Positions 26,200-62,900 of a stretch of 64,000 nucleotides of DNA are shown here, piece by piece (position 1 is the stretch's first letter; each line of letters starts with the position of its first letter). The translations under genes were made by a program, and so were the position numbers. Source of the DNA: Candidatus Hermodarchaeota archaeon (GTDB taxonomy: Archaea; Asgardarchaeota; Lokiarchaeia; Sigyniarchaeales; SOKP01). A model generated the notes under the pieces. The model was not told where the DNA came from. It was given only the letters and a program-made list of their open reading frames with translations, and did no database searches. The stretch is taken from NCBI GenBank assembly GCA_048885925.1, contig JBHLLG010000012.1:1-64000 (forward strand). Reading direction: 5' to 3'.

Positions 26200-27672
26200 A
26201 TGAATGTTAATAAAATTGCTGACAATATATATGAGATTCAACCAAAAACATTAATGACGCGTATTAAGGGGAACATTGAAAAATTTCAGATGAGAGTCCC
26301 TGTAAAAATATATGCTAATAATTACATTCTCGAACAAATAAAGTTAGATCGTACGCTAGAACAAATTTGCAATGTTGCTTGTTTACCTGGAATACAAAAA
26401 CATGCTATAGCTCTTTCGGACGCTCATCAAGGGTATGGTTTTTGCATAGGAGGAGTTGCTGGAACGGATGCAGAAAATGGAATGATTTCTCCGGGTGGGG
26501 TTGGATATGATATTAATTGTGGTGTAAGGTTACTAAGATCAAATTTAGATCTTAAAGATGTTAGGGATGTACTTCCAAATCTGTTGAACGCCATCTTTCA
26601 TAATATTCCTTCAGGTTTGGGTTCAAAAGGAAAACTCAATATTAGTTATTCTGATTTAGACAAAGTTCTAAATAATGGTGTGAATTGGGCATATGAAAAT
26701 GATTATGCAATTGAAGATGATATTGAGCACTTAGAAGAGAGAGGTTGTCTAAAAGAAGCTGATGCTAGTTTAGTTTCTGAAAGAGCAAAACAACGTGCGA
26801 TTAAACAGCTCGGCTCTCTAGGAAGTGGGAATCATTTTTTGGAAATTCAAAAAGTTGATCAAATTTATAATGAAGAAATCGCTAAAAAATTAGGTATCTT
26901 AAGAAAAGATCAAATAGCAGTTATGATTCACACAGGAAGTAGAGCTCTTGGTCATCAAGTTTGCACAGATTCATTACGTAACGTTGAAAAAGCTATGAAA
27001 AAATATAACATTAATGTCCCAGATAGAGAATTGGCATGTGTTCCAGCTAATAAACCTGAAGCACAGAATTACTTAAAACAAATGGCATGTGCTGCTAATT
27101 TTGGTTTTACAAATCGTCAATTAATAACTCATTGGTTAAGAGAATCATTTCAAAATGTCTTTAAAAAAGATATTGATGATTTAGATTTACATTTAATCTA
27201 TGGAGTTTGTCATAATATTCTTAAAATTGAAGAACATGAAATTAATGGTAAAAAAATGAAATTAAATGTTCATAGAAAAGGTGCTACAAGAGCTTTTCCA
27301 CCAGATCATCCAGTTTTACCATCTGATTATAAATCTATAGGTCAACCTGCATTAATTCCAGGAACTATGGGTTCAGCATCATATCTATGTGTAGGGAAGA
27401 AAAATGCTATGGATCTGTCATTCGGTTCTACTGCTCACGGTTCGGGAAGATTAATGTCTAGAACGAAAGCTATTAAGGAATATTGGGGAGAAAAAGTGAA
27501 AAATAATCTTAGCAAACAGGGTATTATTATACAAGCAGCTTCCATGAAGGTAATCGCTGAAGAAGCTCCCGGTGCTTATAAAGATATAGATCAAGTTGTA
27601 CAAGTAAGCCATGATTTAGGAATTGTTGAAAAAGTTGTTAGATTTGTTCCAGTAGGGGTTGTAAAGGGATAA
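26200..27672 (+). CDS. rtcB: tRNA-splicing ligase RtcB
   Basis: DAHQGYGFCIGGV, GYDINCG, GSLGSGNHFLE, HTGSR, VHRKGATRA, PGTMG, STAHGSGR, EEAPGAYK. Confidence 0.97.
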   Translation: MNVNKIADNIYEIQPKTLMTRIKGNIEKFQMRVPVKIYANNYILEQIKLDRTLEQICNVACLPGIQKHAIALSDAHQGYGFCIGGVAGTDAENGMISPGGVGYDINCGVRLLRSNLDLKDVRDVLPNLLNAIFHNIPSGLGSKGKLNISYSDLDKVLNNGVNWAYENDYAIEDDIEHLEERGCLKEADASLVSERAKQRAIKQLGSLGSGNHFLEIQKVDQIYNEEIAKKLGILRKDQIAVMIHTGSRALGHQVCTDSLRNVEKAMKKYNINVPDRELACVPANKPEAQNYLKQMACAANFGFTNRQLITHWLRESFQNVFKKDIDDLDLHLIYGVCHNILKIEEHEINGKKMKLNVHRKGATRAFPPDHPVLPSDYKSIGQPALIPGTMGSASYLCVGKKNAMDLSFGSTAHGSGRLMSRTKAIKEYWGEKVKNNLSKQGIIIQAASMKVIAEEAPGAYKDIDQVVQVSHDLGIVEKVVRFVPVGVVKG

Positions 27673-27701: not shown

Positions 27702-28139
27702 TTAAATATCAAATACAATGTTTATTTTTACTTTATCCTTTTTCTCTTCAATTTTCATGTAGGAATATGTTATTGCTTTCACTTCTGTACCTGATTCATG
27801 TTTATCTTTATTAAATTTTTCTCCTTTAACAATTGCCTCTAAAAAATATTTGTTTTGAATTTTTTTTATTGGTCGAATATCTATTTGGTTAAATAATAAA
27901 TCATCTACATCAAATAAGTAAAGAAATTCACTTAAAAAATCAAATAATAACGCCTCTTTATCTTCTGCTACAATAGTAATTTTTTTCTCAATTCTAGGAG
28001 ATATTAATTTCAAATTTGGAGTAATTGTTTCCATTAAGCTATATGCAGTTTGTTGAAAAGCCTCTTCTAAATTTCTACCTTTAATTTCAACAGAAACATC
28101 AGCAGTATGTTCCAGAAACCTATATCCTACATTCTTCAT
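27702..28139 (-). CDS. Archease (RtcB cofactor)
   Basis: YRFLEHTADV, LLFDFLSEFLY, EVKAITY, VFDI C-terminus; convergent with rtcB. Confidence 0.95.
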   Translation of the reverse strand: MKNVGYRFLEHTADVSVEIKGRNLEEAFQQTAYSLMETITPNLKLISPRIEKKITIVAEDKEALLFDFLSEFLYLFDVDDLLFNQIDIRPIKKIQNKYFLEAIVKGEKFNKDKHESGTEVKAITYSYMKIEEKKDKVKINIVFDI

Positions 28140-39119: not shown

Positions 39120-39220
39120 AGCCTCTGGGGGGAATTGAACCCCCGACCTACGGATTACGAATCCTTAGCATTTAAGGCAAAATGACTAAAAACGTTGCTC
39201 TACCGCTAAGCCACAGAGGC
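39120..39220 (-). tRNA. trnT: tRNA-Thr(CGT) with a 29-nt intron at 28/29 (39165-39193)
   Basis: GCCTCTG/CAGAGGC-T acceptor; spliced arm ACGGA-TTCGTAA-TCCGT; central helix AGCA/TGCT with bulges AC|G and AA|G. Confidence 0.9.
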
Positions 39221-40437: not shown

Positions 40438-40544
40438 GGGCTATTGGCGCAGGCAGGTAGCGCAGCAGGCTTTTAACCTGACATTTAAGGGAGAATCTGC
40501 CTTAAAAAGAAAGGTCGGGGGTTCAAATCCCCTATAGCCCGCCA
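40438..40544 (+). tRNA. trnK: tRNA-Lys(TTT) with a 30-nt intron at the anticodon-stem/variable-loop junction (best fit 44/45, about 40483-40512); CCA encoded
   Basis: GGGCTAT/ATAGCCC-G-CCA; GCAGG-CTTTTAA-CCTG; insert hairpin TTTAAGG/CCTTAAA; exact junction ambiguous by 1-2 nt. Confidence 0.85.
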
Positions 40545-60120: not shown

Positions 60121-60903
60121 ATGGGCAAAGAAAAAAAAACATTAGGAATCAAAACAACAAGATATTTTACAAAAAATTGTTCCAAATGTAGTTTTGAATA
60201 CCCTAATTGGTTTACAAATTGTCCTAAATGTGGAGCTGCATGGGATGATACCGAGCTAATACCTACAACAAAAGAAGTCAGTAAAAAGACAATAAAGATT
60301 GTTGTAAAAATTACTGAAGAAGATTTTAGTAAATCAATCTCTTATGTAAATTTAATTTTTAGTGCTGATCAAGGGACATCATGGTATCAAATGGAAATGG
60401 AGGCGAAACTGGATTATTATATTGCCGAAATAGCAGAAGTTCCAGTTGGTTCAGTTATCATCTATTATATTGAAGTTTATTTAGAAGATGGAGAAAAGGT
60501 TATTGAAAACAATGATGGAAATTACTTTTTTTATAAAGTAGGAATATCAATTGAAGAAGATAATAAAAAACCACCTAAACCAGAAAGAGCAATTATAAAA
60601 AATAGGATTAAAGAAACACCAATTAAACCTCAAAAGTATAATAAACCTCAAATAGAGGTACCGAAACAAAAATCTCATGTTACTCAAGAAATGCTTGAAA
60701 AATCCACTACAATTCCTCAACAACAAATTAGAGCTCCCAAAAGCTCGGAATTTAAAGTTTCTGATGATTATGATATAAGTAATGCTACTATATTTGGTAA
60801 ACCACAAACAAAAATAGACCCGGAGCTAAAAGTTTGCATTCATTGTAATTCGAAAATTAAGAAGATGTGGAGTATTTGCCCTATATGTGGAAAGAATCTC
60901 TAA
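60121..60903 (+). CDS. Zinc ribbon - Ig-like beta domain - low-complexity linker - zinc ribbon protein
   Basis: CSKC...CPKC; V.L.FS.D.G.SW...M...Y.A.I..VP.GS.I.YYIE; CIHC...CPIC. Confidence 0.75.
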   Translation: MGKEKKTLGIKTTRYFTKNCSKCSFEYPNWFTNCPKCGAAWDDTELIPTTKEVSKKTIKIVVKITEEDFSKSISYVNLIFSADQGTSWYQMEMEAKLDYYIAEIAEVPVGSVIIYYIEVYLEDGEKVIENNDGNYFFYKVGISIEEDNKKPPKPERAIIKNRIKETPIKPQKYNKPQIEVPKQKSHVTQEMLEKSTTIPQQQIRAPKSSEFKVSDDYDISNATIFGKPQTKIDPELKVCIHCNSKIKKMWSICPICGKNL

Positions 60904-61000: not shown

Positions 61001-62627
61001 TTATAATTTAGAACCACATTTATTACAAAATGCATAGTCGGATGACAAAATAGCACCACATTGTCTGCAGATTATTATTTCTTTTCCATCACGTTTTTGA
61101 GTGTCTGATTTAATTGAAGATTTTGATTGAGTTCTGAGAACTTGACTAGGCTGACTTTCGAGATCTGAAACATTGGGAATAATTCGAAGTTTACTAACCC
61201 CTTCCGGTTCTATTTCTTTTTTAGCTGTAAATGGCATAAAAGCAGTAACAGCACTTTTTTCTGCATCATCTGATTTTTGAGTTAAAGTTTGAAAAAGAGA
61301 AGCAGTACTTGTTTTTTCAACAATCGGTGTAGGTGGTGTAGGAGTTAATTGTTTTTCTTTTTCTACTTTTTCCTTTTTAGTTTTTTCTTTCTTATCTTTT
61401 TTAGACTTTTTCATTTCTTGTAATAATCTTTCTTGTTTTTCCTTTTCTTCTTGAAGTTTTTTCTCCTTTTCTTCCTTCTTTTTCTGTTTATCAAGCTTCT
61501 TTTTTTCCTTTTTAGAATAGATTGGCTCAGGCAAATAATCTGCTAAGGAATCTGATTTAGGCTCAGACGAATCTTTTGGTATAATAAATGGAACATTAGA
61601 TGATGGTAAACTCTGAACAGAGGGAGTTCCTCGAGAAGACTGAAATCCTTCTGGTGTTGGAGCAGGAATGGGAACATTTGATGTAAAAGGGACGGCCTTC
61701 GGTTTATATTTATCATCTTTAGGGTAAATTGGAGTTTCTTGTGAAGGTGTCTCACTAGCTAAGATTTCTTCTGGTGTTTTAAATGTAAATGAAGCGGGTG
61801 TTTTTGTTATTTCTTCTAATTGTGCATCAGGGAGGGGTATATCTGGTTCAGGTACTGGCGGTGCCTCGAACTCAAACTCCGGTTCTGGTTCAAATGTAGA
61901 TGGTGATTCATGGAATTGAGTAGGAGCTGGTTCCGGTACAGGAGGGGCTGCATATTCAAATTCTGGCTCTGATAGACTGATAGAGGGGGTAAATACTTCG
62001 GTTCCTGTTATAGGAATCATACCTGGGCTGAAAACTATTCCTTTAGTAATAAGTTGATCCGGAACTCCTGAACCTATCATTAGACATGCAAGGATATAAA
62101 AACAATCGCCTACTCCTTCACCTGTTTTAGCTGAAGTTTCCATATAATACAGATTAAAATTTCTTGTAAAGTGATTAATTTCATCTAAGGATACAGCCCT
62201 TTGACCAACTAAATCACTTTTATTACCAACTAATAATAATGGTATTTCACTTTTTACATTTGCTCTCACTTCTTCTATCCATTGTGGTAAATGGTCAAAA
62301 CTATCAGAATTAGTAAGATCAAAGATTAATAACGCACCTAATGAACCTCTATAATACATAGGTCGGATAGAGCTAAAACGTTCTTGTCCTCCAGTATCCC
62401 ATATTTGAAGCTTTGCACGTATAGGTCCTTCATCAGAGTCGATGGCGATGGTTTTAACATGAAAGTGTGTGCGTCTAGGGGGAATTCCACTTAGACACTA
62501 CACCTATCGTCATCTTATAGTCCTCTGTGAAAAATCCTTTACTAAAACGCAGCGTTAATGCAGTTTTACCTACTCCTCCATCTCCTACAACTATCGATTT
62601 AAAGAGGTAATCATATTCTTCAGCCAT
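61001..62627 (-). CDS. Rab-like GTPase with Pro-rich/charged tail and C-terminal zinc ribbon; two exons (62627-62498, 62466-61001), 531 aa spliced
   Basis: Exon 1 MAEEYDYLFKSIVVGDGGVGKT...DYKMTIGV joins via a split GAC codon to FHVKT...KLQIWDTGGQERFSSIRPMYYRGS, in frame with track ORF 61001-62359 (NKSD, ETSAK). Confidence 0.92.
62467..62497 (-). other. 31-nt bulge-helix-bulge intron in the Rab-like GTPase mRNA
   Basis: RNA 5'-GAUAG GUGU AG|U GUCUA-(14 nt)-UAGAC GCAC AC|A CUUUC-3': 4-bp helix, two 3-nt bulges, 5-bp intron helix; cleavage after bulge nt 2 restores GUA GAC UUU. Confidence 0.88.
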
Positions 62628-62900
62628 TGCTAGTCCACTATTAATGTTTCAATTTCTTATATTTTTCAAGCTTTTATGTATTATTACTATAAATACAAAT
62701 TTATAATTTTATTTATATCATTAAAACGATTTTCTTGTGAATTTACTAAGATATAGTTAAGATATAAAGAGAATCCTCTCTTTAAACTCTTTAGAGTAAT
62801 GAATTTTTTCAAAAATAATGTAAACTGTTAAGGCAAAAAGCCTAATTCTAACCTTATCTTGAGATGATTTATTAAAAAAATGGGTAATTTAACTAAATAA

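Follow-up and report, generated by a model that had tools for sequence, protein, structure and literature searches.

The Interrupted GTPase Gene

The DNA considered here, referred to as the window, is a stretch of 64,000 nucleotides (nt) at the start of contig JBHLLG010000012.1 (assembly GCA_048885925.1). Its source belongs to the Asgard archaea, class Promethearchaeia (Lokiarchaeia), as had been guessed in an earlier note on this DNA made from the sequence alone. On its minus strand the window carries a gene for a Rab-like small GTPase, the coding region of which is divided into two exons by a 31-nt insert that is very probably an archaeal bulge-helix-bulge (BHB) intron. Exon 1 (62498..62627) and exon 2 (61001..62466, with its stop codon at 61003-61001) were delimited by translation and by matches to the Pfam family Ras (PF00071), and the insert between them (62467..62497) by comparison with orthologues and by an RNA contig.

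The frame of exon 1 opens at the ATG at 62627, encodes a protein that begins MAEEYDYLFKSIVVGDGGVGKT and reaches ...KMTIGV plus the first base of an Asp codon; its coding product, translated from that ATG, is MAEEYDYLFKSIVVGDGGVGKTALTLRFSKGFFTEDYKMTIGV. Without splicing this frame runs for 7 further codons into the insert and stops at a TAG (62477-62475). The frame of exon 2, open from 62497 to the stop codon at 61003-61001, is one base out of step with that of exon 1, so that removal of the 31 nt fuses both into a joined frame of 531 codons; from 62464 onward the exon 2 protein reads FHVKTIAIDSDEGPIRAKLQIWDTGGQERF.... In the mechanical list of open reading frames (ORFs) the exon 2 frame begins only at an internal Met (ATG 62359) and is 452 amino acids (aa) long. 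That the true gene has an upstream exon starting at ATG 62627, and that a GC-richer insert carrying an in-frame stop codon shifts the frame, had both been claimed in the earlier note and were borne out by translation and by base composition, the G+C content being 52% in the insert, 36% in the gene and 29% in the genome.

The match to the Pfam Ras profile is shared between the two exons, with profile positions 1-33 in exon 1 (E 3e-09) and 38-157 in exon 2 (E 3.1e-35), so that a single G domain is severed within switch I. Exon 1 encodes the P-loop GDGGVGKT and exon 2 the motifs DTGGQE, GNKSD and TSAK, while switch I (TIGVDF) is whole only once the gene is spliced; we take the motifs of small GTPases to be the G1 P-loop GxxxxGK[ST], the switch I Thr, G3 DxxGQ, G4 NKxD and G5 SAK. 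Among solved structures in the PDB, all 60 of the 60 matches listed are Rab, Ypt or Sec4 proteins, the best being Rab-2A (6.8e-31). The G domain is followed by a tail of about 350 aa of low complexity, rich in proline, glutamate and lysine (61001-62090), which ends in a zinc-ribbon-like CxxC...CxxC element (CRQCGAILSSDYAFCNKCGSKL) that scores slightly below the cut-off of Pfam Zn_Ribbon_1 (24.4 against 25 bits). The prenylated Cys motif typical of eukaryotic Rabs is absent from this C-terminus, and the predicted protein is Rab-like in its G domain only. Its orthologues share the N-terminus MAEEYDY... and are single proteins of 531-572 aa.

The BHB Motif and the Register of the Insert

The pre-mRNA around the insert can adopt a canonical BHB motif with two 3-nt bulges. 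The exon helix h is formed by GAUAG (62504..62508, minus strand) and CUUUC (62461..62465, minus strand), which make four of five pairs around a central U.U mismatch. The central helix H joins GUGU in exon 1 (62500..62503, minus strand) to GCAC near the 3' end of the intron (62469..62472, minus strand) by three Watson-Crick pairs and one U-G, and the remainder of the intron makes a hairpin (62473..62496, minus strand), in which the five pairs of helix h' (GUCUA, 62496-62492, with UAGAC, 62477-62473) enclose an inner stem-loop. Bulge 1 (AGU, 62497..62499, minus strand) holds the 5' splice site, between 62498 and 62497, and bulge 2 (ACA, 62466..62468, minus strand) the 3' splice site, between 62467 and 62466, both being supported by the joint in the RNA contig described below. 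The three helices and both bulges stand as they had been drawn in the earlier note, which had passed over the mismatch in h. Compared with shuffled sequences, the 61-nt region folds with z = -2.5, and an Rfam search of 62300-62700 returned only a sub-threshold match to snR75 (16.6 against 40 bits).

If each bulge is cut after its second base, exon 1 ends in ...GGTGTAG and exon 2 begins with ACTTTCAT..., which together read V-D-F, whereas sliding the 31-nt excision by one base gives VHF or VVF. The register predicted by this rule can be compared with orthologues that lack the insert. Within the genus, 21 of 22 orthologous loci read TIGVDFHVKT unbroken and the remaining one, in genome G012, is interrupted at the same place. 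In a larger genome collection 76 loci were fetched, 71 with exon 1 and 5 without the upstream part, and 69 of those 71 are uninterrupted; the other two, L107 (the same sequence as in G012) and L065, are interrupted at the same site. The predicted junction thus coincides with the sequence of these 69 uninterrupted loci, and it gives the TIGVDF motif and the 531-aa frame that the earlier note had derived from the cutting rule. Strict BHB motifs occur in the genome at 55,730 of 1.06e9 position-by-length combinations (~5e-5), and the position and length of the insert are set here independently by the intron-less orthologues, not by a motif scan.

Spliced RNA and Unspliced DNA

The stretch was found in 20 public sequencing runs from 8 studies, and contigs were mapped from one metatranscriptome run (X20) and from three DNA runs (X1, X4 and X13) that belong to three other studies; two further metatranscriptome runs (X22 and X23) contained almost no words sampled from it. 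An RNA contig of 151 nt from X20 (record 18, depth 6) covers 62392-62466 together with 62498-62573 and skips exactly the 31 nt at 62467-62497, with 75 nt of side and no positional ambiguity at the joint. This is the junction that the earlier note had proposed to look for in a metatranscriptome, with 62498 joined directly to 62466. The contig is identical to the exons of the window at 149 of 151 positions, against 126 of 151 for the closest intron-less orthologue, and it therefore stems from the present species or from a very near strain. RNA contigs bear only on the parts of the gene that they cover and are neutral for the remainder.

In the DNA contigs of such near strains the insert is present in every one. 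It is spanned by record 7 of X1 (62412-62519, 0 differences), by record 20 of X4 (1539 nt, 61077-62615) and by record 16 of X13 (62444-62514), the last from a strain that is 91% identical and shows 6 differences over 71 nt; the joined form was found among none of the contigs of these three DNA runs. Three of the substitutions in the X13 strain fall within the intron (62474, 62479 and 62484), one of which, A to G, turns a U-A pair of h' into U-G and so keeps the pairing. Spliced RNA thus exists while the DNA keeps the intron, an observation made at the level of contigs and across different studies. As a side observation, another intron substitution of the X13 strain yields the loop base found in G012.

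Homologous Introns and Their Distribution

The core of the intron was searched in 160 genomes of the class and found in three, namely that of the window (G000), G012 and G084 (which holds the L065 sequence), all of one genus and amounting to 3 of its 53 species. The introns of G012 (L107) and G084 (L065) are also 31 nt long, lie at the same site and are identical to that of the window at 22 and 23 of 31 positions, respectively; an identity of 22/31 exceeds the conservation at synonymous sites between the same species. In all three species the central helix H is fully paired (12 of 12 cells), the second pair being C-G in the two congeners against U-A in the window. This single compensatory change combines a synonymous change of a Gly codon in the exon (GGT to GGC) with a matching change in the intron (GCAC to GCGC). 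The inner hairpin of the intron is kept in all three species, the motifs of the congeners have an enlarged 5' bulge, and in L065 the minimum free energy (MFE) fold is itself BHB-like. That the intron is more conserved than synonymous sites fits either a constraint on its structure or a later transfer.

A quick maximum-likelihood protein tree, with support from the Shimodaira-Hasegawa-like approximate likelihood ratio test (SH-aLRT), was built from 43 of 77 possible rows, the other 34 having failed either the N-terminus pattern or a filter for a 300-codon frame. L065 and L107 fall in one clade (support 100) together with the intron-less L057 and L062, and the window gene falls in a separate clade of 21 rows (support 97), so that the well-supported branches require at least two changes of intron state. 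G012 is among the most distant congeners, with 81% identity in a CO-dehydrogenase (CODH) gene (up to 91% in others) and 89% in a ferredoxin-type gene (up to 98%). The history of the intron may be either an old gain followed by several precise losses, a course also inferred for cbf5 (PMC2738675), or a transfer. No further copy was found in the G000 genome (23-nt core, up to 4 mismatches), and a 27-nt intron pattern gave 0 matches in Joint Genome Institute (JGI) metagenome contigs; a 20-nt pattern gave 9 matches there, all of which were rejected because their contexts were unrelated.

Splicing Enzymes Encoded by the Genome

Genes for the enzymes that would be needed were identified by Pfam matches. 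A gene for the RNA ligase RtcB lies in the window itself at 26362..27669 on the plus strand (PF01139, E 4.8e-171, profile positions 1-426, its extent being that of the Pfam match), and a gene for archease, the cofactor of RtcB, at 27705..28124 on the minus strand (PF01951, E 8.8e-42, profile positions 1-136), so that the two are convergent neighbours about 35 kb from the intron. A gene for the tRNA-splicing endonuclease EndA (198 aa) is found on another contig (G000:C22:7621-8214), with matches to PF01974 (7.1e-29) and PF02778 (7.8e-8) in one ORF. According to the available parts of two sources, Asgard EndA is an (alpha-beta)2 enzyme with a loop that has been tied to broad specificity (PMC5829648), and two EndA paralogues occur in 44 of 60 Asgard genomes (bioRxiv 10.64898/2026.10.13.758758). 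By analogy with the BHB substrates in tRNA, rRNA and cbf5 mRNA, EndA and RtcB would presumably be the enzymes acting here.

Proposed Splicing Pathway and Alternative Explanations

There is thus strong reason to regard the 31 nt at 62497-62467 as an archaeal BHB intron within the coding region of a Rab-like small GTPase of a Lokiarchaeon. The support consists of the motif itself, its agreement with the register of the orthologues, spliced RNA, unspliced DNA, the introns of two congeners and the presence of the enzyme genes. In the proposed pathway, the pre-mRNA would fold by pairing exon 1 with the 3' end of the intron in a 4-bp helix bordered by two 3-nt bulges on opposite strands, EndA would cut after the second base of each bulge, and RtcB, with archease, would ligate the exons, giving a mature mRNA that is translated into one 531-aa protein with switch I (TIGVDF) straddling the junction. 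The central claim of the earlier note, a tRNA-type intron in a eukaryotic-signature gene of an Asgard archaeon, has accordingly gained the predicted junction in an RNA contig and the insert in DNA contigs.

Several observations weigh against this interpretation. In the unconstrained MFE fold the register is displaced by two bases and each bulge is a single base, at -19.7 kcal/mol against -14.7 for the best fold in which H is paired and both bulges are open, and helix h carries its U.U mismatch even in the window. In the two congeners neither h nor the two h' pairs beside the bulges are formed (h is paired in 53% of cells over the alignment), so that the motifs there are relaxed rather than canonical. 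The alignment of relatives proposed in the earlier note therefore delivered a compensatory pair in H and no pairing of h in the congeners, and the covariation score was reached in 163 of 500 shuffles, there being three sequences only. Over the alignment as a whole an alternative register pairs just as large a share of cells (77.8%), although its central pairs hold in just one of the three species. The intron is patchy, with carriers in 3 of 53 species that fall into two well-supported separate clades, and several losses or a transfer are needed to account for this. A single EndA homologue was found, and no second (beta) subunit was detected in the 95%-complete assembly. Finally, the RNA support is one assembled contig of depth 6 from one run, which has 2 mismatches to the window among 75 bases of exon 2, and the DNA runs come from other studies; such contigs are uninformative on the ratio of spliced to unspliced RNA and on a circular intron.

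These last points, together with the lack of the insert in most species of the genus, are also what can be said for the best of the alternatives, according to which the insert is a disabling insertion, the gene a pseudogene, and the apparently spliced RNA a product of a related strain that lacks the insert. We consider this improbable. The insert is kept in DNA contigs of three studies, from strains about 99%, 95% and 91% identical, the joined form appearing in none of them, and the RNA contig (149/151) is far closer to the window than the nearest known orthologue without the intron is to it (126/151). Besides the insert, the 1.6-kb gene contains no further stop or frameshift, and the ratio of nonsynonymous to synonymous change (dN/dS) against six orthologues is 0.01-0.04 for the G domain, compared with 0.17-0.21 for the much faster-evolving tail, with synonymous differences near saturation (proportion pS 0.58-0.75). 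Judged by these comparisons the gene shows no decay and remains under constraint; pseudogene-like decay, which the earlier note had named as one of the outcomes that would speak against an intron, was looked for and was not seen. In addition, 22-23 of the 31 insert positions are identical in two species whose synonymous sites are saturated, and the probability that a random insertion would produce a strict BHB in the exact register is about 5e-5.

Even less credit can be given to two separate products made without RNA processing, a P-loop peptide of 50 aa starting at ATG 62627 and a protein of 452 aa starting at ATG 62359. The two frames are indeed open, each with its own start codon, but neither piece is a complete GTPase, since the Ras profile is split between them (1-33 and 38-157), and the second product would begin within the G domain, past switch II. 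The orthologues, moreover, are single proteins of 531-572 aa, and joined RNA exists.

In the bypass of phage T4 gene 60, a hairpin and a stop codon are found near the take-off point of the ribosome. The stable hairpin of the insert and the stop codon soon after the would-be take-off point resemble that case, and the 31 nt might accordingly be skipped by ribosomal bypass or frameshift during translation, not in the RNA. We regard this as highly improbable, because the RNA contig already lacks the 31 nt and because the cut points obey the BHB rule, which is a rule at the level of RNA. An error of assembly or sequencing in one genome, a concern raised in the earlier note, has nothing in its favour and can practically be dismissed as the origin of the insert, given that the stretch occurs in 20 runs of 8 studies, with the insert in independent contigs of three of them, and that a homologous insert is present in assemblies of two other species.

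Other Protein-Coding Genes with Predicted BHB Introns

The BHB intron of the GTPase gene is probably not the only one in this genome. The whole genome was scanned for a strict hBHBh' motif combined with an ORF-merging filter that required exons of at least 30 codons. The filter gave 707 candidates, compared with 660-704 in frame-shifted decoys, and so has no power on its own; adding paralogue alignments across the junction left 28 candidates against 25-33 decoys, likewise without power. Two further cases were singled out only by ranking the motifs on BHB fold energy, followed by a homology check. Both are 32-nt introns, at ranks 1 and 3 of the 55,730 strict motifs.

One of them would interrupt a prismane/CO-dehydrogenase gene (G000:C4:38336-38367, equivalent to L109:1937-1968, plus strand), where it is supported by a break in the Pfam match and by orthologues. 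Its motif is canonical, with 6, 4 and 8 bp in helices h, H and h', respectively. Exon 1 (560 aa) matches positions 3-457 of the PF03063 profile up to its final residue, and exon 2 (75 aa) matches positions 458-512 from its first residue, the joined product of 635 aa having the open-frame length of most orthologues. Compared with the orthologues the gene has gained exactly 32 nt in length, located between ...GAATAT and ATGGAG.... None of the 18 orthologous genomes found carries the insert: all 9 of the 9 pattern-matched orthologues are uninterrupted, and nine unmatched ones have open frames of 635-648 aa.

The other, in a 4Fe-4S ferredoxin-type gene (G000:C31:18957-18988, equivalent to L110:458-489, minus strand), was recognized by its BHB energy, which is the best in the genome (-18.3 kcal/mol), and by a paralogue that aligns directly across the junction. 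The last residues of exon 1 are ...CNGCAFC, with two bases of an Ile codon behind them, and the first of exon 2 are RACDFG, so that the junction restores a CxxCxxCxxxC cluster motif. In 14 of 16 congeners the gene has an unbroken frame of 184-188 aa. The genes of G016 and G023 carry a different, unrelated 32-nt insert (L148:1466-1497 and L149:1466-1497, minus strand of the loci), one base downstream of the G000 site, with an 8-bp exon helix and 3 of 4 H pairs. This insert was perhaps gained independently at a hot spot, and the ferredoxin-type gene looks like a case of repeated independent gain at a place where the exon can supply half a BHB.

The CODH and ferredoxin-type inserts are predicted BHB introns whose removal at the predicted cuts would restore the frames, and three split genes are a lower bound, since the scan admitted only strict helices and exons no shorter than 30 codons. 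With at least three unrelated genes apparently split in one genome (GTPase, CODH/prismane and 4Fe-4S), and with two of the three G000 introns found in no other genome searched, we lean, with some reserve, towards the view that this lokiarchaeal lineage holds a dynamic population of tRNA-type introns in protein-coding genes.

Other candidates of the scan were rejected: those on C45 (N = 25) and C14 (N = 31), which are adjacent genes or possess an N-terminus of their own, eight more with N of 27-69 that were rejected by eye, and six with N of 95-146. Among strong motifs there was no surplus of lengths divisible by three (3n), as would be expected of in-frame introns hidden in ORFs. Two other very strong BHB-like motifs were noted, one at G000:C36:17976-18011 (-14.8 kcal/mol), outside long frames, and one at G000:C59:3197-3289 (-16.6 kcal/mol), a 93-nt in-frame stretch inside an open frame; both may be unannotated RNA genes or plain hairpins.

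Relation to Known Systems and Implications

The following comparisons rest on those parts of the cited sources that were available. The best-known BHB intron of an archaeal mRNA is that of cbf5, carried by Crenarchaeota in the Desulfurococcales and Sulfolobales orders (PMC2738675; PMC7714728 and PMC5829648, citing Watanabe 2002 and Yoshinari 2006) and inferred to be ancestral to the two orders, with secondary losses (PMC2738675). Apart from a 5' untranslated region (UTR) case in Haloferax, it is given as the sole mRNA BHB intron reported by 2020 in the accessible text of PMC7714728, and the same three cbf5 papers are cited by PMC5829648 and PMC12397907. Like cbf5, the GTPase gene would have a BHB intron in an archaeal coding region that is handled by the tRNA-splicing pathway and is lineage-specific with losses. 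Unlike cbf5, it belongs to an Asgard archaeon (Promethearchaeota), not to a crenarchaeon, and its product counts among the eukaryotic signature proteins; in a single genome at least three unrelated genes seem to be affected here instead of one conserved gene, and the GTPase intron is rare within a genus (3 of 53 species), whereas that of cbf5 is inferred to go back to the ancestor of two orders. Experiments have demonstrated the splicing of cbf5, while that of the GTPase gene was seen through one metatranscriptome contig.

The Haloferax volcanii case, HVO_1309, is a BHB intron in the 5' UTR of an mRNA, confirmed by knock-down of endA and by cleavage in vitro (PMC7714728). Both this transcript and that of the GTPase gene are mRNAs that the archaeal splicing endonuclease processes, or presumably processes, besides tRNA and rRNA, although the HVO_1309 intron lies in an untranslated leader of a euryarchaeon and leaves the frame intact. 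In Asgard archaea, tRNA introns are known to be numerous and lineage-specific, with repeated gains, and the available parts of these reports concern tRNA genes only (PMC11291895; bioRxiv 10.64898/2026.10.13.758758); a term search of the latter found 'mRNA' 0 times and 'protein-coding' only for neighbouring genes. The predicted introns described here share with them the recognition motif, presumably the enzymes, and the picture of repeated gain. They differ in that their host genes encode proteins, and the frame must therefore be restored to the base.

The HAC1 and XBP1 mRNAs of eukaryotes are spliced in the cytoplasm by Ire1 together with a tRNA ligase or RtcB, in a stress-regulated manner that changes the frame. 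The GTPase case would resemble them in having a short mRNA intron, no spliceosome, a structure-specific endonuclease with a tRNA-type ligase and a change of frame, but Ire1 cuts two stem-loops without BHB recognition. Unconventional splicing of HAC1/XBP1 is mentioned in PMC13149111.

No description of BHB introns in Asgard protein genes was found in the literature searched, with subscription journals and supplementary files lying outside the search, in agreement with the guess of the earlier note that there was none. As far as this search reaches, the GTPase case is the first BHB intron in an Asgard mRNA. Archaeal BHB introns in coding regions had rested on cbf5 alone for two decades, as stated in the accessible part of PMC7714728. 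If the lineage does hold a dynamic population of such introns, splicing of mRNAs by protein enzymes is routine in the nearest prokaryotic relatives of eukaryotes and would be a recurrent trait of that lineage. Gene callers would then be misreading the genes concerned systematically, as truncated ORFs or pseudogenes, as with the 452 aa from the internal Met here in place of 531 aa. The gain and loss of introns in protein genes of prokaryotes would become directly testable through presence/absence polymorphism within one genus, aided by a site that holds different inserts in different species, and the introns would offer natural substrates for studies of the specificity of Asgard EndA.

Other Features

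The tool aragorn, run with the option -i, lists 31 tRNAs, 19 of them with introns, an output that was judged unreliable and was left unused; in the window it proposes candidates for tRNA-Gly and tRNA-Lys with introns (39120-39220 and 40438-40544, respectively), whereas the default tRNA tool detects none anywhere in the window. The neighbour of the GTPase gene, on the plus strand (60121-60903) and convergent with it, codes for a protein of 260 aa that bears zinc-ribbon-like CxxC pairs at either end.

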